From a virus (lineage: Duplodnaviria > Caudoviricetes), in IMG/VR virus record IMGVR_UViG_3300022670_001121, positions 1 through 30,691 of that record: 30,691 nt of DNA. One strand, 5' to 3'. Shown here in pieces: positions 8,110-24,452 of this stretch. Below the pieces are notes generated by a model. The model was not told the DNA's origin. It ran no database searches and saw only the letters and a list, made by a program, of their open reading frames with translations. The position numbers and the translations under genes were made by a program. Position 1 is the first letter of the stretch. Each line of letters starts with the position of its first letter.

Positions 8110-8415
8110 ATGAAAGACATCTACAAAATGAAACTGCATGAATACACAAACTCTGATAAAACAACAAAAATTACAAGAGTCCCCGGAGGATGGATTTATG
8201 AATCTATACTGATAGGATTTGGCATGACCTCAGTTTTCGTCCCTTGGCACGATTCAGGCCGTCAGATAGAGAACACCGGAAATTATGAGGAGTTGAAAGC
8301 AAAACTCCAAAAAGCTGACGATATTTTGTTTCGGCTTGATTCGAATATTTTACATACTGATGCAGGGCAAAAAGTCATCAGAAATATCATAAATGAATAC
8401 TATGGAGATAAATGA
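8110..8415 (+). CDS. Hypothetical early phage protein
   Basis: 101 aa with GAGGA RBS, ITRVPGGWIY motif and C-terminal helical segment. Confidence 0.7.
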   Translation: MKDIYKMKLHEYTNSDKTTKITRVPGGWIYESILIGFGMTSVFVPWHDSGRQIENTGNYEELKAKLQKADDILFRLDSNILHTDAGQKVIRNIINEYYGDK

Positions 8416-11774: not shown

Positions 11775-12122
11775 TTATTTTATTATTTCAGGTTTATTTA
11801 TCAGCTGCAAATGCTCTACTATATAGTTCATCATTCTTTTATACATTTTAACAGATTCAGCATCTGTTAAAAAACCTGCGATTCTCAATAGGTTAGATGC
11901 TCTACGCATTTCTTCAATATATTCTCCACAGCTGATTTTCATTCGGAACAAATGATTATATGTACTATCTAATTCAAACCCCTGCTCTTTAAGTTGTTCT
12001 GAAATAGTTTCAGGTACTACATCGGTACTAATCACTATGGATAGCCCGACCCTTTTATATCTCTCTCTAACCGCATTCGGATATAAAATACCTCTCTCTT
12101 TACATTTCATTTTTTCGGTCAA
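11775..12122 (-). CDS. Hypothetical phage protein
   Basis: About 115 aa. Start uncertain (TTG 12122 or ATG 12110). Confidence 0.6.
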   Translation of the reverse strand: MTEKMKCKERGILYPNAVRERYKRVGLSIVISTDVVPETISEQLKEQGFELDSTYNHLFRMKISCGEYIEEMRRASNLLRIAGFLTDAESVKMYKRMMNYIVEHLQLINKPEIIK

Positions 12123-12489: not shown

Positions 12490-12763
12490 TTCTGTCCTCC
12501 TCTATAATAGCAATTACTGTTGCTGTTGTATCCGGTTTTTTAAGATAAACCGTCTTCAGAATATAAAGATCATCACCTAGCCAGACACTATGGCAATACC
12601 GCCATTTATGCCTTGTTTCTCCGGCCACTACTACTCCGCAGCATTGAAAAGGATTTCTTCCGATAACATCTTTTACAATCTGCACCTGCTGTTCCAGCCT
12701 GCTTTTACTCAGTCCTTTTTCCTGAATAAACTCATCATCAATCCGTCGTACTTTATATTTCAT
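12389..12763 (-). CDS. Hypothetical phage protein
   Basis: Start reassigned to ATG 12763 (AAGGAGG RBS): MKYKVRRIDDEF... Confidence 0.65.
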   Translation of the reverse strand: MKYKVRRIDDEFIQEKGLSKSRLEQQVQIVKDVIGRNPFQCCGVVVAGETRHKWRYCHSVWLGDDLYILKTVYLKKPDTTATVIAIIEEDRSESDGRKKDGDGANEHVRNVGVDEYSRGSVLGS

Positions 12764-12776
12764 ATTCACACCTCCT

Positions 12777-12974
12777 TTAACCCGGTATATAATTAATAGT
12801 CTGCACTGCTCTATCCCAGCATTCATCACACTGATTATGTAATAACGGACTGTTCTGAATCTCCATTTCATCTTCTATCAGTTCAACCGCATGTTCATGA
12901 CTTGCGGCCTCTACTGTCACCTTACCTTTAAAACTGATTTCAGTCTCAAAAGTGTATTCATATAACTCCGGCAT
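12777..12974 (-). CDS. Hypothetical phage protein
   Basis: 65 aa with GGAG RBS. The VTVEAASHEHAVELIE pattern (V-x-A-x-S-x-E-x-A) is common in small phage proteins. First gene of the leftward operon. Confidence 0.7.
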   Translation of the reverse strand: MPELYEYTFETEISFKGKVTVEAASHEHAVELIEDEMEIQNSPLLHNQCDECWDRAVQTINYIPG

Positions 12975-13624: not shown

Positions 13625-14556
13625 GAGAAGACCAGGCCTACTTCAACTCAAAAGCCATAGGAAGCAGTCTGTTATCTACCTTTATCCAAAGCCCTGACCA
13701 TGCTTTAATGCAGGTTCATCCTACTAATTATATGGAAAACGGCAGGATATGGGAAGATTTGGTGCAGTATCAGATAATCGGAGACAAAAGCGGTTTTACT
13801 GATAAATACTATCGATCTGAAACCGATAACCTGCCTGTTTCCCAAACCTACAGGTCTATTCCTGATATTATGGATGATGATGATATCACACAGGCTGTAG
13901 CAGACGGATATATTTATAGTAAGGACGGATCATTAAACGCAAGACAGAATGCCAGGCATACTCTGTTTGATGAGATAAAAGAGAACGGCTATAAAAGGCC
14001 GATACCTCTTGAATGCTGGGGAAAAATGCAGAAAATGTGGCATAATTTCTCTAAGGCTCAGTATAAAGGCCGGAATATAGTAAATATGCTGAGAAGCATT
14101 AAAGATGTGAAATTTCAGACTATCCATTACTGGACTGATATTTCAGGAGCAGAGTGCAGAATGAAGTCTGATATTGAAGCCGTTTATCCTACTGAGCAGG
14201 GACTCCAGGGAATGATTATTGATCTGAAATGTGCTTCCAATGTCACAGAGTACGGCAATAACAGAAACAGATGGCAGGAGAGACATTATGTGACCGGATA
14301 CAGACAGTATTGTCTGAAAAATAAGATTAACCCACCTCAACACATGATTTTCGCTATATCTGAACAGAAAATTCCTTATCTGACTTATGTTGATTATCTT
14401 GAAAATCCGCTGGAATATAACAGAGATTATATATTTGAGAACCAGGAAAAGTATCAGGAACATCTGGAAGCATGCCACAAATGGATCAAGGCAGGTAAAA
14501 AAAGTAAAGGGTTTAAAGAAAGAGTTTTAGATAAATATTTCAGACCTATTAACTAA
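13621..14556 (+). CDS. PD-(D/E)XK exonuclease, RecE/exonuclease VIII (DUF3799)-like
   Basis: YFNSKAIGSSLLSTFIQSP N-terminal motif, CRMKSDI, IIDLKC and WQERHY. Directly upstream of a RecT-like gene. Confidence 0.8.
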   Translation: MREDQAYFNSKAIGSSLLSTFIQSPDHALMQVHPTNYMENGRIWEDLVQYQIIGDKSGFTDKYYRSETDNLPVSQTYRSIPDIMDDDDITQAVADGYIYSKDGSLNARQNARHTLFDEIKENGYKRPIPLECWGKMQKMWHNFSKAQYKGRNIVNMLRSIKDVKFQTIHYWTDISGAECRMKSDIEAVYPTEQGLQGMIIDLKCASNVTEYGNNRNRWQERHYVTGYRQYCLKNKINPPQHMIFAISEQKIPYLTYVDYLENPLEYNRDYIFENQEKYQEHLEACHKWIKAGKKSKGFKERVLDKYFRPIN

Positions 14557-16383: not shown

Positions 16384-16758
16384 ATGGAAAAGAAATTCAT
16401 AAACAGCCTTGAGAATACTCTGGCCCGGTTTGAAAGTGATAAAGTAGGGCTGAAGCCGGAATTTACAGAAGAACAGCTGAAAATAATTGAGCCTTTAACA
16501 TTCGGTTATACAAAAGCTCTGAAACTGCTTAAGGAATATTCTGAAAGACAGACAAACACCCTGTCCGGTGCCAAAGGATACCAGGGCAGCGTTGCTTTGG
16601 ATGATGATACAAAGGAATATTACGGCAGAATTATAGGCCTGAGCGATGAATTATCCTACACAGGCAAAACCATGCCTGAATTAGCCGGAAACTTTCATAA
16701 GGCTGTGGATGATTATCTTCAGTCATGTGGAAAAATAGGAAAGGAGCCTGAGAAATGA
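16384..16758 (+). CDS. HicB-like antitoxin domain protein (no DNA-binding domain, N-terminal extension)
   Basis: C-terminal half KGYQGSVALDDDTKEYYGRIIGLSDELSYTGKTMPELAGNFHKAVDDYLQSCGKIGKEPEK matches the HicB partial RNase H fold. Confidence 0.8.
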   Translation: MEKKFINSLENTLARFESDKVGLKPEFTEEQLKIIEPLTFGYTKALKLLKEYSERQTNTLSGAKGYQGSVALDDDTKEYYGRIIGLSDELSYTGKTMPELAGNFHKAVDDYLQSCGKIGKEPEK

Positions 16759-17183
16759 GCGAACACGACGAACAGGTGGCTTTCTTTGACTGGCTCAGGC
16801 TGAACATTAAAAGGTTACAGCCTGTCGCCGTCAATAACTGTTCTGTTCCAAGTCCCAACCCTGAGTTACTAAAGGCTTTGGATTTGTGTTATGCAGTACC
16901 GAATGGAGGACAAAGACATATAATGATAGCAGTAAAGTTGAAAAGAGCGGGTGTAGTAAGAGGCTTTCCGGATATTAATTTAGATTACCCCAGCAGAGAT
17001 TGGCATGGACTGAGAATGGAAATGAAGTTCGGGACTAATACACTAACCGGATATCAACAACGTAAAAAAGAACTGCTTGAATCAGTAGGCTTTAAATATA
17101 AACTATGTTATCAAGACAGAACAGCTATTGAAACTATAATAAACTATCTGCCTTTCAAGAGGCAGGATTATGTGGGGGTTTAA
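16755..17183 (+). CDS. VRR-NUC domain nuclease (putative Holliday junction resolvase)
   Basis: SEHDEQ, YAVPNGGQR, LKRAGVVRGFPDI, GLRMEMK and LTGYQ motifs. Confidence 0.9.
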   Translation: MSEHDEQVAFFDWLRLNIKRLQPVAVNNCSVPSPNPELLKALDLCYAVPNGGQRHIMIAVKLKRAGVVRGFPDINLDYPSRDWHGLRMEMKFGTNTLTGYQQRKKELLESVGFKYKLCYQDRTAIETIINYLPFKRQDYVGV

Positions 17184-17392
17184 TGAATAAAGAATTAGAA
17201 TTAATAATGCGGCCTATAGATGAATTTTTCCAAGATATTGTAGAAATAATTTCTCCAACCTTATCTCCTTCTTCAGAGGAAGATTTAATCAGCGCATATA
17301 ATAAATATATTGATTTCAAAAAAGATATCGCTAAAAAATTGGAAAAGTTACAAAAGTCCCAAAGGCCTGATCATCCATTGAACGTAGCATAA
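17183..17392 (+). CDS. Hypothetical phage protein
   Basis: 69 aa, TAATG coupling. The 3' end overlaps the convergent late-strand gene. Confidence 0.55.
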   Translation: MNKELELIMRPIDEFFQDIVEIISPTLSPSSEEDLISAYNKYIDFKKDIAKKLEKLQKSQRPDHPLNVA

Positions 17393-18259
17393 GAACTGCT
17401 GACTGCCCATATTCATCTGTTCCAGATAGTCAGAGGTGTCCACACTGGAAGTGATGATTCTGGTACCACAGCCGTATTTCATACCACTGCTCCATTTTTC
17501 TACATTCAGACCGAACATGAAAGCGGCGGAATCAGTCAGTTCTCTGTCTTCGGATTTCCTGGCGTTAGGATAGGCCTTATAATCAACTTCCTTATATTCA
17601 AGTTTCACTTCATTTCTACCTATTCCCACTTGGAAAGTCCAATGCCAGGGATCACTGATCTGACCGTTGAAAGTAACATACGGCAGAAGCAGAGAATAAT
17701 CACCTTTGGTCACATTCCCCGGAAAAAAAAGAACATCACCGCTGTTATCCTTAATCACATCAAAGTCTCTCGCTCCACTCAGACTGAACTGCTGCCATAA
17801 TACCCCGAATCCCATATTCGGGCTGACATAATATTCCCAGGCCGCACCGTTGAAAAATATCGCGTCGGGGGCTTTGGGAGCATTGAAATAAGCGGAGTCG
17901 GCTTTCAGAAAACCCATAATCTCCACTCTGAGCTGATGTTTGGTCTGTACAAGAGAGGTTACGGCCATGTCAGCATTCTCCTGCTGATTTTTACCGAACA
18001 ATCCACCAAGACCTAAAACAACATTGTTATTGCCTGTTATCCCGTTTCTGAGGTTATATTCCTGTTTGTTTATTTCCAGGTCTCTCGCCTTCAATTCCAG
18101 TGCTTTCTGTCTAGCCACCTGCTTCGCCTTATATCTGCATGTCTCTTTAGTATCCCCTGTTCCCCACCAAGGAGTATTTTTATTGAAACAGGCTGCCTGA
18201 ATATCAGGTGTAATAAACATCAGCAGCAGAAAAAATATAAAATAACTTCCGATTTTCAT
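17348..18259 (-). CDS. Exported protein, probable 8-stranded outer-membrane beta-barrel
   Basis: Signal peptide MKIGSYFIFFLLLMFITPDIQA-A and AGGAG RBS. Eight amphipathic aromatic-rich strands: QLRVEIMGF, GAAWEYYV, MGFGVLWQQF, LLLPYVTFNGQI, WHWTFQVGIG, FMFGLNVEKW, MKYGCGTRII, QFLCYVQWMI. Confidence 0.62.
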   Translation of the reverse strand: MKIGSYFIFFLLLMFITPDIQAACFNKNTPWWGTGDTKETCRYKAKQVARQKALELKARDLEINKQEYNLRNGITGNNNVVLGLGGLFGKNQQENADMAVTSLVQTKHQLRVEIMGFLKADSAYFNAPKAPDAIFFNGAAWEYYVSPNMGFGVLWQQFSLSGARDFDVIKDNSGDVLFFPGNVTKGDYSLLLPYVTFNGQISDPWHWTFQVGIGRNEVKLEYKEVDYKAYPNARKSEDRELTDSAAFMFGLNVEKWSSGMKYGCGTRIITSSVDTSDYLEQMNMGSQQFLCYVQWMIRPLGLL

Positions 18260-18268
18260 TGAACACTC

Positions 18269-18592
18269 CTAAACAACAGATGATTGGTGATAAGCAGGCT
18301 GAATATGACGGCTTCCGGCATGTTTTTTCACTTCGTAAAAGATAGTGAAAAACACTACCATGTAAAACGAAGAAATGGAAAAAATAATAACAGTTGTAAA
18401 TACCCAGCGTTTGAAACTATCACGCCCCGGTCTCGGAAACTGACGATCACACAGGCGATATAGCAACAGACAGACGGCTAACAAAGCGAAGAGTACAACA
18501 ATCAATCCGAAGTTTGCTTTCAGCAGATTAGCGATTGTATAGTACCCATACCAATTAGCAATAGTTGTGAATACTGAAAATATCAGTTCCAT
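18269..18592 (-). CDS. Small integral membrane protein (2-3 TM)
   Basis: 107 aa with AAGGA RBS, two clear hydrophobic helices and a basic loop. Confidence 0.7.
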   Translation of the reverse strand: MELIFSVFTTIANWYGYYTIANLLKANFGLIVVLFALLAVCLLLYRLCDRQFPRPGRDSFKRWVFTTVIIFSISSFYMVVFFTIFYEVKKHAGSRHIQPAYHQSSVV

Positions 18593-18605
18593 AAGTTCCT
18601 TTAAA

Positions 18606-19118
18606 TTACACCCAGTTCTTTATGTGCCAGGGAAAAATACTGTCAAGCAGAAGATGAGTGACAATACCGAAAGAAAGTCCGGTCAGTATAAACGGAATTA
18701 CTGTCTCACTGAACTCAGGTACGAAAGTCAGAATAAATCCCGGAATAAACGGAAGAATGTAATGATAATTAAGCAGCAGAGCGAATCCGTATTTATGAGT
18801 AATGCCCCGATGTTTGATCCAGCCGCTTTGAAGCAGCAGCGATAAAAGACCAAGACAGCCGGCCGGCATTAATAACTGTTCCTGTCCATATGAAACCGCG
18901 CTTATCAGACAGAATAGGACAAACACAGCCCCCAGTCTGCCGAACCATTTACGGGGAGTTGAAGCTATATCCAGATCGGGCAGTTGGGCTCCGATCCAGG
19001 TTCCGGCCGCGACAGCTGACGCTGCCCCCCAATTTTCGTAATCCGTTAAGAACAGACAGCCTGCTCCGGCTATGAAAGCGGCAGTCGTGCCTCCGATCAG
19101 ATGACCTCTGAAATTCAT
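18606..19118 (-). CDS. Membrane-bound metal-dependent hydrolase (YdjM/DUF457-like)
   Basis: N-terminal GH, LPDLD, HRGITH and THLLLD motifs separated by hydrophobic helices. Confidence 0.9.
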   Translation of the reverse strand: MNFRGHLIGGTTAAFIAGAGCLFLTDYENWGAASAVAAGTWIGAQLPDLDIASTPRKWFGRLGAVFVLFCLISAVSYGQEQLLMPAGCLGLLSLLLQSGWIKHRGITHKYGFALLLNYHYILPFIPGFILTFVPEFSETVIPFILTGLSFGIVTHLLLDSIFPWHIKNWV

Positions 19119-19120
19119 AA

Positions 19121-19618
19121 TTAAAATACCTCCTGTTTTTTATGACAGCTTCTCATCAGTCTCTTTTTCTTCAATCTGACCTGCTTGAAATAAAGCAGCT
19201 GACTATTCATCACCCAGGAGCGGTTTTTATGCAGAACCAGTTTATTAGCTCCTTTCTCTGTGGAAGCATCAAATTCCGCGTCGGGACCATACCCTCCTTT
19301 GATTACAAACAGAGTACCACTGAACCAGGCGTATCCGTCTTTATGATTCTCTATCTTCAATCCCGGCCAGACGACCTGGAGCAGAAGTTTAGTAACAGAC
19401 GGCCTTAACTCATAACGTGATCTCTGATCTCCTAAAGGAGAGCGATAATAATATTTAAGAGAGGTAGGGGACTTATCCGCTAAGGGATCATCTTTCCCGA
19501 TATCGTAGATACAGACTTTATCTCCGGGCAGAAATACAGTATCCCATTTCAGACGGTTTGCCGCTGATGCAGAGCTGTATAATACCAGAAGTATGACTGT
19601 AAGAATGAATTTCCTCAT
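19121..19618 (-). CDS. Secreted/periplasmic protein of unknown function
   Basis: Sec signal MRKFILTVILLVLYSSASA-A. Basic mature domain with two Cys. Confidence 0.72.
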   Translation of the reverse strand: MRKFILTVILLVLYSSASAANRLKWDTVFLPGDKVCIYDIGKDDPLADKSPTSLKYYYRSPLGDQRSRYELRPSVTKLLLQVVWPGLKIENHKDGYAWFSGTLFVIKGGYGPDAEFDASTEKGANKLVLHKNRSWVMNSQLLYFKQVRLKKKRLMRSCHKKQEVF

Positions 19619-19622
19619 GATT

Positions 19623-20123
19623 TTATTTTCCGAACACGAATTCCTTTGTTAAAAAAGCGGCCGCCAGCATAATCATCAGTACCGGAATATGGATCATCAT
19701 ATTTCCGTATAATTCATTGGCCCACCCGAAAGGATGGCAGGCTATAGTGGAGTCAATAAACTGTAATGAATAAAAACCATATCCCTGATATGCCAGATAA
19801 TGAGTAGATACCCCTATCCCCAATAACCGCAGTATTTTCAGTATAGTCAGCCGGATAGTAATGAATATCCAGGCACAGATACCGATTATAAACAGCAGCA
19901 GACAATAATAAATCGGAGATGTATAACTGATTTTCCCTTCACAATTACTTCCTATAAACGACAAAGCTATTCCTGAAAGTCCCGCGAAAAAAAGCGCAAA
20001 GCCGAAAGTGAAATGGGATTCCACAAACTGCGCTGAACCGCATTGAGTTTTATAAAGAGTTTCATTCCATCTTCTGATTCTTTCCCATCTGCCGGATTCT
20101 CCGATAGCCTGGACTTGCTCCAT
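19623..20123 (-). CDS. Four-TM integral membrane protein
   Basis: 166 aa with four hydrophobic segments, AGGAGG RBS and TGATG coupling. Confidence 0.75.
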   Translation of the reverse strand: MEQVQAIGESGRWERIRRWNETLYKTQCGSAQFVESHFTFGFALFFAGLSGIALSFIGSNCEGKISYTSPIYYCLLLFIIGICAWIFITIRLTILKILRLLGIGVSTHYLAYQGYGFYSLQFIDSTIACHPFGWANELYGNMMIHIPVLMIMLAAAFLTKEFVFGK

Positions 20124-20941
20124 CAGTCCTCCTGATAAGGATTATGGGGCCGCAGTACACAGAGAAATCCTAACTGCGGAGATTCATAACCATCATCCTC
20201 ATAGCGTAATTCCGTACTTGCATGCTCATAAAGCCTGTAATTATCACCATTCAGAAACCCGTTACCTTCCGGAGTTGATGTCCACAAAGGAAAGCCGGCC
20301 TGGATATCAAGCCTCAGATTAGGTTTAAGTCTGTCTCCTATTCTACCGAACGATGAGGAATTCTGTTCTGCCGTCAGGCCCGCGTAATAATCCGCCAGTT
20401 TCAATTCATTATAACTGGGAAGATCATATCCGGGACCTAAAGCGGCGCATCTCTGCGCGGCCTCACCCTGTTCTATATCGGTGATTGTATCCCATACACC
20501 CAATAAGTCCTCACTTGCGTATGTTGTCTGAATCAGAAAGCCATAACCTAACTTTTCGCCGACATTCCATAGATTAGGGCCGGATAATTCATGCCTGCCT
20601 GTCCCTACCATTGTCAGATACTGCAGATTAGTCGTTGAAAAAATTTCCGTCCAATCTATCGACAGAACATTCCTGGCGAATCTGAAACTATTGACTCCGA
20701 TACCTATCTCCTTGAATTCAGTCTCATTATTACGTTTCATATCCGGGAACAGATAAGCGCACAATACTACTATTAAGAACACAATCAAAGTGAAGATAAA
20801 CCATCCTTTTACAAAAAGCGAGGCAAAAGAAATCCATACATTCTCCGTCAGGCTGACGGCCCGAAGGTCTCCGGTATTCTCAGTATAAACAGAGGTATAT
20901 TCATCTTCTGTAGTATTAGGATCACCGGCTGATAAGCGCAT
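20123..20941 (-). CDS. Membrane-anchored FGE-sulfatase/C-type-lectin-fold protein
   Basis: Start reassigned to ATG 20941 (AAGGAGG RBS). TM helix WFIFTLIVFLIVVLCAYLF, then EAAQRCAALGPGYDLPSYNEL, LWTST and terminal LGFLCV, matching the EA-x3-C...LP-x3-E...W...GFRCV pattern of FGE/DUF1566-type domains. Confidence 0.7.
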   Translation of the reverse strand: MRLSAGDPNTTEDEYTSVYTENTGDLRAVSLTENVWISFASLFVKGWFIFTLIVFLIVVLCAYLFPDMKRNNETEFKEIGIGVNSFRFARNVLSIDWTEIFSTTNLQYLTMVGTGRHELSGPNLWNVGEKLGYGFLIQTTYASEDLLGVWDTITDIEQGEAAQRCAALGPGYDLPSYNELKLADYYAGLTAEQNSSSFGRIGDRLKPNLRLDIQAGFPLWTSTPEGNGFLNGDNYRLYEHASTELRYEDDGYESPQLGFLCVLRPHNPYQED

Positions 20942-22271
20942 TGACGTCCTCCTTGAATTCTGTTGAAGATTCTTTGAAAATTTTTCCGTAACCGCTGTTG
21001 GTACCCGCCTTCTCAGCAGCCTCGGAAGTATCATTAGCAACAATAGAGTCGATAGGCTGACATTCCAGGCGGTGATATCTGATCAGAGGATTGTTCTTCT
21101 GTGCCAGCCTGACAATCTGTGAAATTCTTTTATTATAATAAAAATAAGCAGCGTTCTGTTGGGTTACTTTATCCGCTTCAGCGTCCAGTTTATACAGTTC
21201 AGCGGCAGCGGGAGAATTTATCTTGACCGGAATTCCTATCGAAGTAATCTCAATCTCATCAATATTTTCCGAAAGCAGAAGCCCCATAGAATCATTTTTC
21301 TCAGGCGGCGACAGAAATACTCCTCCGATTTCTGCGGTGTTTTTCTGAGCGAATATCATTTTAGTGACAGCCGCATCCTCACAGGCAGTCCATAGTTCAA
21401 CTTCCGGGTGAGTTTTATTATAATACTGAGTAATACTCATATCAGCCTGGATAGCTGAAATAAAAAGTTCTGTCTGTACGTCTTTCATCCGCAGCACAAC
21501 CTTACCGTTCATAAAAAGTTTCTGAAGAGCTTTGCGGGCCTGTCCGGCATGAAATCCGGTCAGATTACGCTTCACCCTTTTTACAACCATTCTCTGAAAA
21601 CTGCGTAATACTCCGGGAGTATGTACTTCCCGCCAGTCGGTCAGCCACCATTCATTCAGTCTGTCGATAGAAATCCCGACCGCAAGTGCAGCGGCAATAT
21701 TAGCCCCATCGCCCTGGCCTGTAATTCTGCTGTAATACTCATGGAGAGGAGCCTTTAGTTCAAAACGCAGCTGTCTGGCCTTCTGAATCATACCTAAAGC
21801 CCCGGCCCAACTTCCGGCATTATCGAAAGTCAGTACTCTGCTTCCGGATAAATCCGGATGAGCCAAAGTCTGGCTTCTTATTTTGCGGACTGAATTATAA
21901 AGTTCGATTCTTTTCTTCTGTCTGCCGAGAATATCAGCAAACCGGGATTTGTAAGTAACGGGCGACGGGGGAACAACGTCTGGAATTGACAGCAGTTCCG
22001 GCTCTTCATCCGTTTTTTCTTCCGGCTGGGGAATCTCGTCAACCTCTTCATAAGTACTGAGTGTTACAAAATTGTTCGGCTGAGGCGGCTTAAACTTCCA
22101 ATAGATTTTATATTCATCATTCTTTATGTGAATAAGCCCATGTATGGTATCATCATCAGTGATACTGACGACATCTCCAAGCCCTCTGCCTTTCAGACCG
22201 GGCAGGATAAGGGACTGGAACCCGAAATTGGAAACCTGACATCTGGTTTCAGTTAATAAATTTCTCTCCAT
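20922..22271 (-). CDS. Patatin-like phospholipase-fold protein with degenerate catalytic motifs
   Basis: RVLTFDNAGSWAG (cf. ILSLDGGGxRG), YSRITGQGDGANIAAALAVG (cf. FDLIAGTSTGxIIA), LWTACEDAAV (cf. lw.a.rASsAAP), ITSIG and YHRL. Extra N-terminal domain of about 140 aa including an acidic Pro-rich linker. Confidence 0.75.
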   Translation of the reverse strand: MERNLLTETRCQVSNFGFQSLILPGLKGRGLGDVVSITDDDTIHGLIHIKNDEYKIYWKFKPPQPNNFVTLSTYEEVDEIPQPEEKTDEEPELLSIPDVVPPSPVTYKSRFADILGRQKKRIELYNSVRKIRSQTLAHPDLSGSRVLTFDNAGSWAGALGMIQKARQLRFELKAPLHEYYSRITGQGDGANIAAALAVGISIDRLNEWWLTDWREVHTPGVLRSFQRMVVKRVKRNLTGFHAGQARKALQKLFMNGKVVLRMKDVQTELFISAIQADMSITQYYNKTHPEVELWTACEDAAVTKMIFAQKNTAEIGGVFLSPPEKNDSMGLLLSENIDEIEITSIGIPVKINSPAAAELYKLDAEADKVTQQNAAYFYYNKRISQIVRLAQKNNPLIRYHRLECQPIDSIVANDTSEAAEKAGTNSGYGKIFKESSTEFKEDVNALISR

Positions 22272-22737
22272 TTTGCTTTTCCTCTTCTTTTGTTGGCAGT
22301 AAGTTATCTACAGGCCGTACAATTAATGATTTTTCAGTTTTAGGAAGCAGTTCCTTCTGATAAAAATCCAGAAAATTCAGTTTCGACAGATGAGTATCCT
22401 CCAGCCACAGAACATCCTCTTCTTTCCATCTCAACAGAAGTCCCGGTGAAGACTGCATTCTGGTCCGGATCAGGTATAATTGAGTATTAACAGCTATATG
22501 AAAATAGCCGGGAGCTGATTTCTCAAGATGGTCCAGCATCTCCTTCATATTCAAAGGCTTCAATCCTTTGTAGGCATTCATTGAAACCAGTTTATCATGT
22601 TCTACAAACCACTCTGTATCCGAATCGAAAAGGGAAAAACGGAAAGCATTATCCAAAACATGCAGCATCCAGAATTTTTTCGTATCTACGGCTTCCGGTT
22701 TAAGAGAAAGCGGTCTGAATAATCCTGTCTTTTTCAT
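22249..22737 (-). CDS. Hypothetical soluble protein, first gene of the envelope cassette
   Basis: Likely ATG 22737, 4 nt after the chaperone stop. Overlaps the patatin-like start. No motif recognised. Confidence 0.68.
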   Translation of the reverse strand: MKKTGLFRPLSLKPEAVDTKKFWMLHVLDNAFRFSLFDSDTEWFVEHDKLVSMNAYKGLKPLNMKEMLDHLEKSAPGYFHIAVNTQLYLIRTRMQSSPGLLLRWKEEDVLWLEDTHLSKLNFLDFYQKELLPKTEKSLIVRPVDNLLPTKEEEKQNGEKFIN

Positions 22738-22741
22738 TATT

Positions 22742-23041
22742 CTATCCGGGGTAAATCTCAAAAAAGGAACAGTCGGCCGGCCAGGTTACAATATCCGTGT
22801 AAGACGAATAAGTAACAGTCATATCCAACATGGCTGTACGCCATGTGGTAAATTCCGTCTGTTCAGCTGTTGTCAGATCAGTCCAGGGGCCCTGCAGCTG
22901 ATATTGATCATAAAATTCAAATCTTTTCTTACGTTCAGGGCGCAGAAACTCATCATGCCAGACCGATACATCCGCTGTCCAGGCATCAATTTTTATCTGC
23001 TGTGCGGCTGAGACAAGATTATCATCAATTATAATATTCAT
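22742..23041 (-). CDS. Tail fibre assembly chaperone
   Basis: TTWRTAMLDMT...DIVTWP resembles the W/Y-R-x-x-L-x-D...I-x-W-P motif of phage tail assembly chaperones. Follows the tail fibre. Confidence 0.72.
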   Translation of the reverse strand: MNIIIDDNLVSAAQQIKIDAWTADVSVWHDEFLRPERKKRFEFYDQYQLQGPWTDLTTAEQTEFTTWRTAMLDMTVTYSSYTDIVTWPADCSFFEIYPG

Positions 23042-23044
23042 ATT

Positions 23045-23251
23045 CTATGCTCCGGTTCCATCAGGAGCTCCTTCTGTCCCATCCAGTTTCCATTTATCCC
23101 TTTTTACTGTATCCGAAGGCAATTCTGTATCTTCAATTATCCAATAAGGTAACCCCGCAGGAACATCTTTGTCCGCCGCTGCTTGTAAATCACCGGGAGC
23201 GTTAAGAATCCCGAGCGTATTATCCGTCCTTTTATAAATAACTATCTGCAT
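23045..23251 (-). CDS. Small tail-fibre-associated protein
   Basis: AADKDVPAGLPYWII...LPSD...RDKW...PDGTG, a pattern typical of small genes following phage tail fibres. Confidence 0.72.
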   Translation of the reverse strand: MQIVIYKRTDNTLGILNAPGDLQAAADKDVPAGLPYWIIEDTELPSDTVKRDKWKLDGTEGAPDGTGA

Positions 23252-23252
23252 T

Positions 23253-24452
23253 TTATCTGGTGATAATCACATTTATATGTTCATGGGCATTAAAAAATGC
23301 TGCATCATTAGCGCCACCAGCTTGTGATGCTGTTCTGAAACGTATTTTGGTGGTTGTTTTATCTACTATCTGCACAATAAAATCGTCATTATTAGAGGAA
23401 TCATTAAATGAAAATATATGCAACGCGTAATTCGTATCTTCTATTGCCGTAGTGAAATTCACAGTATAATCAGCTGTCGCCTCTTCTATAAAACTTGACA
23501 CATTACCGCTGGCATTAATTGAGGTATCCCCAGCCGTTCCGTCCAGATTAGCCCATACCCTTACAGCGAAAACAGGGGCGCTGCCGGTTGCCCGTAAAGC
23601 CTGTCTGATTCCCAGAGGAGAAACAAATTTAGTGTCATTCGTTCCGGCTTCATTCTCAGCCTGATTAGATTTAATAGGCATCGCTCCCAACGCATCAATC
23701 AGTCCTTTCAACACAAGCCCCTGGTTAGCCGAGAGAGGATTTGTAGGGCTTGTCGATAACAGGTTGTCAATCACAGCAGGCAGATTGTCAATCAGTCCCT
23801 TAAGAATCAACCCCTGATTGGCTGATAAGGAGTTGACAGCACTGTTTGTAGTCAGATTGTCGATGACTATCGGAAGAGCGTCGATTAAAACCTGAAGAGC
23901 GTCGATTAACGCCTTAAGCACTACTCCCTGATTAGCCGACAAAGCCTGAGCCGCTTCCGTTGTAGTCAGATTATCTATTATCGCTCCGACTACTGTCGGA
24001 ATAAGCAGATTATCTACAAATTCCTGGACACTCAGTTCAGGTTCAGTTATCCCTACTTTCAATGAACGAAGATCCAGAGTCTGATTCTGTTGAACCATTC
24101 CTACCACCCGGTCTATCGCGTCTTCCAGAATTCCGGCGTTAATGATTGTATTACGGCCTAAATCAAGAAACTCCTGAGCGTAGGGAGTCTTTCTTCTTAA
24201 AGTGATTTTGGTATTGGTATCAATCGGACTGCCTGTCACCGGGAAAGTCACTGTTCCCACAGTCGGGAAAATACCGGGAGTAGCCGGATTCACCGTAAAA
24301 TTCGATAACTGCTCTGTGTCTACACCTGTCGTGATATCGGTGAGAAATACCTGCATATCGGCCAGAGCATAAATCGGGAACCCGAAATTGAAAACTTTCG
24401 TGCTGTCGTTCCCCAGAAAAGTAACCTGCGCTGTGGTGAAGCCTACCGTCAT
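23253..24452 (-). CDS. Tail fibre protein (T7 gp17-like N-terminal anchor)
   Basis: N-terminal GNDSTKVFNFGF...ITLRRKTPYAQ...LEDAIDRVVGMVQQ. Three DNL-x8-LSANQG-x2-LK-x-LID repeats. C-terminal RVWANLDG...SGNVSS...YTVNFTTAIEDTNYA tip domain. Confidence 0.88.
   Translation of the reverse strand: MTVGFTTAQVTFLGNDSTKVFNFGFPIYALADMQVFLTDITTGVDTEQLSNFTVNPATPGIFPTVGTVTFPVTGSPIDTNTKITLRRKTPYAQEFLDLGRNTIINAGILEDAIDRVVGMVQQNQTLDLRSLKVGITEPELSVQEFVDNLLIPTVVGAIIDNLTTTEAAQALSANQGVVLKALIDALQVLIDALPIVIDNLTTNSAVNSLSANQGLILKGLIDNLPAVIDNLLSTSPTNPLSANQGLVLKGLIDALGAMPIKSNQAENEAGTNDTKFVSPLGIRQALRATGSAPVFAVRVWANLDGTAGDTSINASGNVSSFIEEATADYTVNFTTAIEDTNYALHIFSFNDSSNNDDFIVQIVDKTTTKIRFRTASQAGGANDAAFFNAHEHINVIITR
23688..23981 (-). 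repeat. Three imperfect tandem coding repeats (about 30 aa) in tail fibre shaft
   Basis: IIDNLTTTEAAQALSANQGVVLKALIDAL / VIDNLTTNSAVNSLSANQGLILKGLIDNL / VIDNLLSTSPTNPLSANQGLVLKGLIDAL. Confidence 0.9.

Follow-up and report, generated by a model that had tools for sequence, protein, structure and literature searches.

We characterized a block of eight co-oriented genes (g1–g8; 17348..22737, minus strand) in the window, a 30,691-nt stretch of a tailed-phage genome (Caudoviricetes), and found that its core recurs as a linked unit among virion genes. We tentatively read the block, from sequence, as a conserved late phage module for non-canonical lysis or exit that may act in place of holin, endolysin and spanin. 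A patatin-type phospholipase without its catalytic residues and several membrane proteins lie among virion genes, with no standard lysis genes recognised, and this combination argues for an exit route that has so far escaped description.

All eight minus-strand ORFs of the proposed block were found in place, preceded by late genes packed against g1 (22742..24452, minus strand), namely a tail fibre gene (23253–24452; Phage_fiber_rpt, E 1e-23) and two small genes without assignment. From the 99-aa gene (22742) to g8, the successive gaps are 4, −23, −20, −1, 4, 2, 13 and 9 nt. The original prediction that there is no room for a separate promoter or terminator was borne out (intergenic gaps ≤13 nt, no terminator-like site in any of them); its label of tail-fibre chaperone was not, as the genes just upstream of g1 match no family. 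Promoter-like sites between 16300 and 24600 were at chance level (18 observed, 16.7 ± 3.4 in shuffles), and terminator-like sites numbered 11 (7.0 ± 2.8 in shuffles). A single hairpin (17165–17148) lies about 180 nt beyond g8, which overlaps a convergent ORF (17183–17392) by 45 bp. A contig from another study carries 17361–23041 unbroken, with 388 letters differing from the window and both flanks replaced, so the block is not a mis-assembly. Judging from 39–46-kb relatives, the window is probably about 10–15 kb short of head and tail genes.

The central gene, g2 (449 aa; 20922..22271, minus strand), encodes a pseudo-patatin with an N-terminal β domain (residues 1–77), a linker and a CapV/CapE-like patatin fold. 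Its AF2 model (pLDDT 61.6) matched CapE by Foldseek (E 3e-9), and VIA gave a Z of 18.9 (rmsd 4.5, 246 aligned). The nucleophile position (Ser of GxSxG) is Gly in 35/35 aligned sequences (17/17 plus 18/18 distant rows), the catalytic Asp motif DGG is absent from 17/17 sequences and the glycine-rich oxyanion loop is replaced by FDxxx(C/S)WA in all 16 rows that cover the site. Lipid-directed lysis, once suggested for the block, cannot therefore arise from catalysis by g2 itself. The protein is probably derived from a CapV-type phospholipase of CBASS. Viral scans that used g2 or g8 as a single protein returned nothing, and homologues were found by alignment searches.

Immediately upstream, g1 (162 aa; 22249..22737, minus strand) encodes a predicted cytoplasmic protein of no family, present in 7/7 type-A and 1/2 type-C loci. 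It had no match among PDB sequences; Atlas feature matches pointed to XLF/XRCC4/PAXX (0.89), which we treat as a lead only. Complex prediction scored g1–g2 at 0.48 (best control, 0.00; g1 replaced, 0.00), with contacts agreeing at at least 12% and a partner pLDDT of at least 62. In calibration, the mark was reached by 116/157 solved and 2/215 mismatched pairs, and scores of ≤0.60 that reached it came from 18/157 solved pairs and both mismatches; the g1–g2 score falls in this zone and therefore points only weakly to contact. Overall, g1 is likely to be the partner of g2. A g2–g3 tail contact gained no support from this job, because the score fell to 0.00 once g1 was replaced, a result that is not evidence against the contact.

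Three membrane proteins accompany g2 in the core. The product of g3 (272 aa; 20123..20941, minus strand) is a single-pass protein (TM 47–65) with a predicted periplasmic FGE-sulfatase/C-type-lectin (CLec) fold; FGE-sulfatase matches were obtained for 3/5 homologues scanned (best E 7e-7), along with a SUMF2 match (E 0.004), and Cys165 and Cys261 are invariant. Given the CLec fold, we searched for the reverse transcriptase of a diversity-generating retroelement and found none among the ORFs of the partial window genome. At the other two core positions, g4 (166 aa; 19623..20123, minus strand) encodes a polytopic inner-membrane protein with an invariant Cys pair and a distant homologue in L112 (E 2.9e-5), and g7 (107 aa; 18269..18592, minus strand) a holin-sized protein with two TM segments (26–44 and 67–85) and homologues in five other elements. 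Both are holin-like in size and TM count, with no holin family match. The type-B proteins TM161 and TM85 were rejected as homologues of g4, g6 or g7 (HHalign probability ≤2.9%), and we therefore treat them as positional analogues. The products first predicted for the block largely stand, as the patatin fold, FGE/CLec, YdjM and barrel calls hold (the barrel match just below its cut-off); g4, described as a four-TM protein, has three clear hydrophobic segments.

The subtype in the window adds further envelope proteins. A 165-aa basic, all-β protein with a predicted signal peptide and of no known family is encoded by g5 (19121..19618, minus strand), which is subtype-specific and has a family of 37 members. 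Its AF2 model (pLDDT 88.4) bears a weak SH3/KOW-like resemblance. A known endolysin fold was considered for g5 and set aside: Foldseek matched nothing in PDB or BFVD at E ≤ 0.001 and VIA Z stayed at ≤3.9, with no known hydrolase matching the fold, values that show neither novelty nor absence; PDB sequences gave non-significant matches only, and the Atlas nothing usable. The likewise subtype-specific g6 (170 aa; 18606..19118, minus strand) encodes a YdjM-family membrane hydrolase (PF04307, E 2.4e-10; 40.6 bits against a curated cut-off of 29) whose predicted metal ligands (H6, D48, D50, H103, H108, H155 and D159) are invariant in 5/5 sequences. It is the sole predicted intact enzyme of the block, and the four-gene core has none predicted to be active. 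At the end of the block, g8 (303 aa; 17348..18259, minus strand) encodes a protein with a predicted signal peptide and outer-membrane β-barrel (family of ten; the homologue in G002 matches OMP_b-brl at E 4e-6, below cut-off). One phage carries g8 6.7 kb away on the opposite strand, two lack it and two others have it without g1–g7; it is a loosely linked accessory that behaves like a mobile moron.

Linkage of the core is conserved. Rather than occurring singly, g2, g3 and the two small membrane proteins were found together in 13/13 copies with context. Every one of these copies runs in the same direction as the virion genes beside it; there are about eight independent settings, and placement is often mid-operon with overlaps. 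Sharing the direction of late genes is also a tendency of morons. The window, a BPP-1-like podovirus, is one carrier; others are myoviruses of lambda/Mu-, P1- and P2-like type, two further phages with the module in their head operons, and orphan capsid loci. Several copies lie in prophages of one little-known bacterial lineage. From shared genes we infer that the window's own host belongs to the same lineage, whose phylum we presume, as a guess, to be SAR324. Gene order is maintained at 25–50% identity. The eight genes are not an obligatory trans-envelope unit, as had been proposed: g1, g5 and g6 complete the window's subtype around a core of four, one copy is without g5 and g6, and g8 is detachable. 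Speaking against an exit role, G002 tolerates the insertion of four ORFs inside the block. Placement at the end of the late operon holds in part; copies lie within late operons, but several are inside tail or head operons, with structural genes surrounding the mid-operon module of G001, G083, G094 and L112, and capsid genes immediately preceding it in the orphan loci G081 and G082. A portal scan recovered one close relative (L045, head genes only) and 12 distant ones. In the 88 host-phylum genomes, full-length matches to g2 or type B were confined to prophage-like or capsid loci, supporting a phage origin; g5 matched in 1/88 (the prophage) and g8 in 0/88. Weak host patatin matches (L092 and L096–L098) keep the dyad motifs and were rejected as unrelated to g2.

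No canonical lysis cassette was recognised elsewhere, in the window or in the module-bearing genomes scanned. Among the 55 window ORFs we recognised no holin, endolysin, spanin or wall hydrolase, and no peptidoglycan hydrolase among g1–g8; i-, o- and u-spanins gave no family match in the window and no lipoprotein spanin was seen, spanins being poorly covered by HMMs. In G002–G004 (55, 78 and 85% complete), the only 'lysis' PHROG matches shown were hub LysM domains and tape measures, and the complete 36-kb G094 had no canonical lysis gene (49 ORFs against Pfam, 37 against PHROGs). Phage lysozyme was found in 0/5 host genomes (control in 3/14). The lysis genes of so divergent a host lineage can escape HMMs, and many environmental tailed phages are without recognisable lysis genes. 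An M23 peptidase lies directly after g7 in G083 and two genes after g7 in G001, and none was found in the five records searched (G002, G003, G004, G094 and G093). All five hosts encode MraY-like proteins (172–184 bits, below the 192 cut-off) and therefore probably have a wall. Two podophages related through the ejection protein are informative about the slot: Carin1 has an annotated amidase between the tail spike and convergent RecT/exonuclease genes, which is the layout of the window, and BL94 has a glycosylhydrolase in the position of the module. An annotated peptidoglycan hydrolase occupies this slot in only two of the four cultured relatives examined.

If the block serves host exit, g2 would still bind membrane or lipid and oligomerise, acting together with g1 as a scaffold or timer in the cytoplasm; the holin-like inner-membrane subunits would be g4 and g7, and g3 would expose to the periplasm a domain that binds glycans or a signal. 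For the subtype seen in the window, g6 could contribute phospholipase-C-type membrane damage and g5 might be an exported wall-binding factor. The wall would be cut by the M23 peptidase where present, host hydrolases or an unrecognised enzyme being needed elsewhere, and g8 would be an optional outer-membrane moron. A bolder version, possible but rather doubtful, is a fourth escape route of tailed phages, in which the dead descendant of a CBASS phospholipase would form filaments that sense nucleotides or lipids and serve as the scaffold for a machine in the inner membrane (with a lectin-fold sensor and two membrane subunits). This machine would replace holin, endolysin and spanin in unrelated phages that infect one host lineage, and the hosts would have kept it to release eCIS- or GTA-like particles.

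Other explanations account for parts of these data. One might suspect a host locus captured recently, or an assembly artefact, that serves no function in the phage, given that g1–g8 belong to no PHROG family and that g2 matched none of 50,697 GenBank phage records, but the confinement of g2 and type-B matches to prophage-like or capsid loci, the scarcity of g5 and g8 in the 88 genomes, the maintained gene order and the independent contig make this very improbable. Adjacency to structural genes is constant, and in G083 the module follows the tail tube and its chaperone, the usual position of the tape measure, as expected of a membrane-anchored assembly platform or of proteins packaged and injected with the DNA. 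Such a role in morphogenesis or delivery is nevertheless improbable, as podo-, P2-, P1- and lambda/Mu-like elements with unrelated virions share the module, G002–G004 and G094 have their own tape measures and g5 and g8 have predicted signal peptides.

Two further readings, each unlikely though less so, concern defence and exclusion. CBASS is often triggered late, and the dead CapV-like g2 might work as a decoy by capturing cyclic dinucleotide or by poisoning the CapV filaments of the host; the membrane proteins would anchor g2 or protect the membrane until virion assembly is complete. CapE and CapV are the top structural matches of g2, and of 20 host patatin loci its profile matched one (E 0.0013), a CapV-like gene that itself matches solved CBASS lipases at E 4e-63; a wider profile also found intact patatins in G043, G073 and G082, of which those in G043 and G082 adjoin genes that read from sequence as nucleotidyltransferase-like. 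CapV is described, in the part of the source available, as acting as a cGAMP-induced filament (PMC12480259). However, in a low-identity alignment g2 does not retain the CapV segment that bears the cGAMP contacts F147 and K149, it is not obvious why a decoy would need an invariably present CLec protein in the periplasm plus two membrane proteins, and the missing lysis genes are left unexplained. They are equally unexplained by a superinfection-exclusion or lysis-delay sensor. In that scheme, the lectin-fold domain of g3, together with g5 and g8, would sense or hide a receptor or an arriving phage, and g4 and g7 would relay the signal to g2 and g1. The predicted architecture does run from periplasm to cytoplasm, intact copies persist in the orphan capsid loci of two genomes (g2 identity 89% and 63–66%) and g8 is moron-like; yet there is neither promoter excess nor intergenic room, and the mid-operon positions among structural genes make lysogenic expression unlikely.

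For the exit of many tailed phages from walled Gram-negative hosts, the module offers a defined, portable candidate of four to seven genes. Whichever function proves true, a patatin kept without catalytic residues across 20–45% identity, and tied to a constant membrane architecture in late operons, is a new phage use of an immune-effector fold, be it in a machine for exit or in an anti-CBASS or exclusion system of a new class.

The block shares its genomic slot and holin-sized membrane proteins with holin–endolysin–spanin cassettes, but has no sequence match to these proteins and is built around a dead patatin. We take the topology of g3, with its periplasmic domain, to resemble that of T4 holin T, the exported and cytoplasmic partners being presumably comparable to RI and RIII. 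YdjM proteins have been proposed as phospholipase-C relatives with predicted activity; g6 lies above the Pfam cut-off with predicted ligands kept, and differs from the proteins covered in the accessible text in being phage-encoded within a late module (PMC8557891). With CBASS CapV/CapE, g2 shares the fold across the whole patatin domain, and they are its best structural and profile matches (PMC12480259). Compared with CapV/CapE as far as that source describes them, g2 differs in lacking the Ser–Asp dyad, in its extra N-terminal β domain and in being always linked, within late operons, to membrane genes; no CD-NTase match was found among the window ORFs. In the openly accessible literature searched, we found no description of a matching module, and the closest system was the patatin-based lytic cassette proposed beside the tail genes of phage WO (PMC9203015). 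That cassette, in the portion of the report available, comprises a patatin, a holin-like protein with a single TM and an ankyrin-TM protein, and no ankyrin match was found in the window. Both systems place a patatin-family gene and small membrane proteins near tail genes in phages without holin–endolysin–spanin, with a lytic role proposed in each (PMC9203015). By contrast with what is described there, the patatin here is without its catalytic dyad, it is accompanied by two polytopic proteins and one TM-CLec protein, and its hosts encode MraY-like proteins.

The module is a real, undescribed, mobile and late unit with a four-gene core. In the window, the eight packed minus-strand genes (g1–g8, window 17348..22737; g1 nearest the tail fibre) have the spacing originally described, and promoter-like sites show no excess. 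A close relative was found in X2, a sequencing run labelled marine sediment from another study. A single X2 contig spans window 17361–23041, differing at 388 letters, with other sequence in place of the fibre tip and of the gene that converges on g8; the g1–g8 block is thus real and moves as a unit among close relatives. A 69-aa ORF on the strand opposite g8 (window 17183–17392) overlaps the g8 3′ end by 45 bp and is replaced in the close relative; a HicB-like gene (16384–16758) lies upstream. The window, an entire linear virus record (30,691 bp), encodes a T7-type portal and a terminase, along with a RecT/exonuclease block, a tail fibre and a protein of 1888 aa. Given that 50 phage records match this large protein, among them BPP-1, Carin1 and Caulobacter phages (39–46 kb), the window is, judging by its sequence, a partial BPP-1-like podovirus; head and tail genes expected between the contig ends are absent from the record.

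The type A order g1–g7 is shared without change by the window, three lambda/Mu-like myoviruses (G002, G003 and G004; module after the tail fibre) and a P1-like prophage (G001; among tail genes). A Mu-like prophage remnant (G083) carries g1–g4 and g7, with an M23 peptidase directly behind g7; g1–g3 are also present on a 2.5-kb contig. Type B combines a distant pseudo-patatin and a TM-CLec gene (HHalign, 94% for g2 and 93% for g3) with two membrane genes; it lies between the tail completion and sheath genes of a complete 36-kb P2-like phage (G094) and, in two copies per genome, after orphan capsid genes in G081 and G082. Type C, within head operons of two further phages, comprises a pseudo-patatin, a single-TM protein (no HMM match; a CLec-like Cys motif at its end, read by eye), a 3-TM-like gene and a 2-TM gene, and in one of these phages homologues of g1 (E 2e-7) and g4 (E 3e-5) are present as well. 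All 13 copies having context are co-oriented with adjoining virion genes. Of the proposed eight-gene unit, linkage is kept across phages, but the core is four genes (g2, g3, g4 and g7) and g8 is separate: in G002 it is inverted and 6.7 kb from the module, G003 and G004 lack it, and in G092 and G093 it precedes the terminase, with no g1–g7 found in the DNA examined around it. The equal longest contigs of three g5 and g8 homologues (27,776, 27,627 and 10,301) suggest that g5 and g8 may recur together.

One phage copy has REP-like palindromes before g1, between g4 and g5 and between g6 and g7 (L006:9450–9600, 12730–12820 and 13780–13900). Small genes sharing an N-terminal motif, two near-identical and the third similar, are scattered among the G004 tail genes (L042:6907–7128, 8138–8398 and 11809–12081). 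Between the tape measure and baseplate hub genes of G003 sits a four-gene block (L041:616–3989; 432, 219, 220 and 266 aa) that matches function-unknown PHROG families; the starts of these genes resemble type IV CRISPR Csf genes. The orphan capsid cluster of G081 and G082 consists of a 465-aa protein, the major capsid and a 121-aa gene, plus the type-B module; on G082:C98 (L019:614–11484; L076:5614–11185) and G081:C81 (L018, L100) it has an eCIS/Afp-like structural operon on one side and an eCIS-effector-like gene of 1604 aa on the other, labels that are our reading of the sequences. In both genomes the capsid genes, the module and the eCIS-like genes for sheath and tube have the same layout, which suggests that the cluster may be domesticated. 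A second capsid and type-B copy (G082:C90; L020, L074, L075) stands in divergent orientation to a long, P1-like tail region in which baseplate and fibre genes occur in two sets; the element is possibly tailocin- or GTA-like.

The predicted g2 fold joins an N-terminal beta domain to a patatin domain, with the CBASS effectors CapE and CapV as top structural matches (Foldseek E 3e-9; VIA Z 18.9, rmsd 4.5, 246 residues). Its profile, searched against 1.84 billion representatives, gave 47 matches at E ≤ 0.001 and 24 at 1e-10; 18 distant full-length matches were aligned, and of 13 further matches listed eight have an ordinary intact-patatin start. Gly replaces the nucleophile in all 17 close sequences and in all 18 aligned distant ones, and the DGG aspartate and glycine-rich loop are likewise gone. 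On the features tested, g2 does not belong among active patatins, nor the module with CBASS. The g3 product is a single-pass membrane protein of FGE/C-type-lectin fold (PF03781 is matched by three of five homologues, and the window g3 alone has no match), and g4 and g7 encode small membrane proteins. The confident all-beta g5 model (pLDDT 88) has no significant match among known structures, with weak SH3-like rows at most. A YdjM member with ligands intact, g6 belongs to a family proposed from modelling as a phospholipase-C relative (PMC8557891). No family was found for g1; the predicted g1–g2 complex scored 0.48, whereas three controls scored no higher than 0.00, and modelling weakly favours g1 binding g2. 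The g8 product looks like an outer-membrane barrel.

The corresponding slot holds an amidase in Carin1 and a glycosylhydrolase in BL94 (two of four cultured relatives examined), the retroelement and unannotated genes in BPP-1, and regulatory genes and an integrase in UFJF_PfDIW6. In the window, G002–G004 and the complete G094, no family of holin, endolysin or spanin could be recognised, nor was the canonical lysis cassette elsewhere in the genome that the original prediction had named as telling against lysis. Phage lysozyme was found in none of five host genomes. The likeliest reading, to which we give slightly less than an even chance, is that the module is a non-canonical exit system, a reading based on position and absence rather than activity. 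Counting against exit, the hosts encode MraY-like proteins, the core lacks any predicted active enzyme, and divergent lysis genes can escape recognition. Extra unassigned exported or lipoprotein genes in tail operons of module-bearing myoviruses (L038:18856–19554, L041:5295–5975, L042:8401–9009 and L068:8411–10159) are candidates for the wall- or outer-membrane-acting step otherwise missing. A gene of 60 aa in G094 (L062:8599–8781), whose product has a hydrophobic stretch at its N-terminus, stands at the position that holds the lysis genes in P2.

Since, within the host phylum, the intact proteins most closely related to g2 resemble CapV and G082 has a CBASS-like operon, descent of g2 from the CapV clade is supported, and a counter-defence role with g2 as decoy stays a live, if improbable, model; however, the CapV segment bearing cGAMP contacts (PMC12480259) is not evidently retained in the g2 alignment, and a decoy would leave the fixed membrane and periplasmic partners unexplained. 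That the module is instead a sensor for exclusion or lysis delay we also consider unlikely. CBASS-like loci with CapV-like effectors occur in host-phylum genomes (L101:2813–7415 on G082:C127, L104 and L106), the first by appearance a four-gene type II operon.

A literature search short of full texts, supplements and subscription journals found no description of the module and, as originally claimed, no named system with this composition. On the features tested, the module belongs neither with canonical lysis cassettes nor with the patatin lytic cassette proposed for phage WO (PMC9203015). The latter is the closest analogue, yet every partner differs, as does the host wall.
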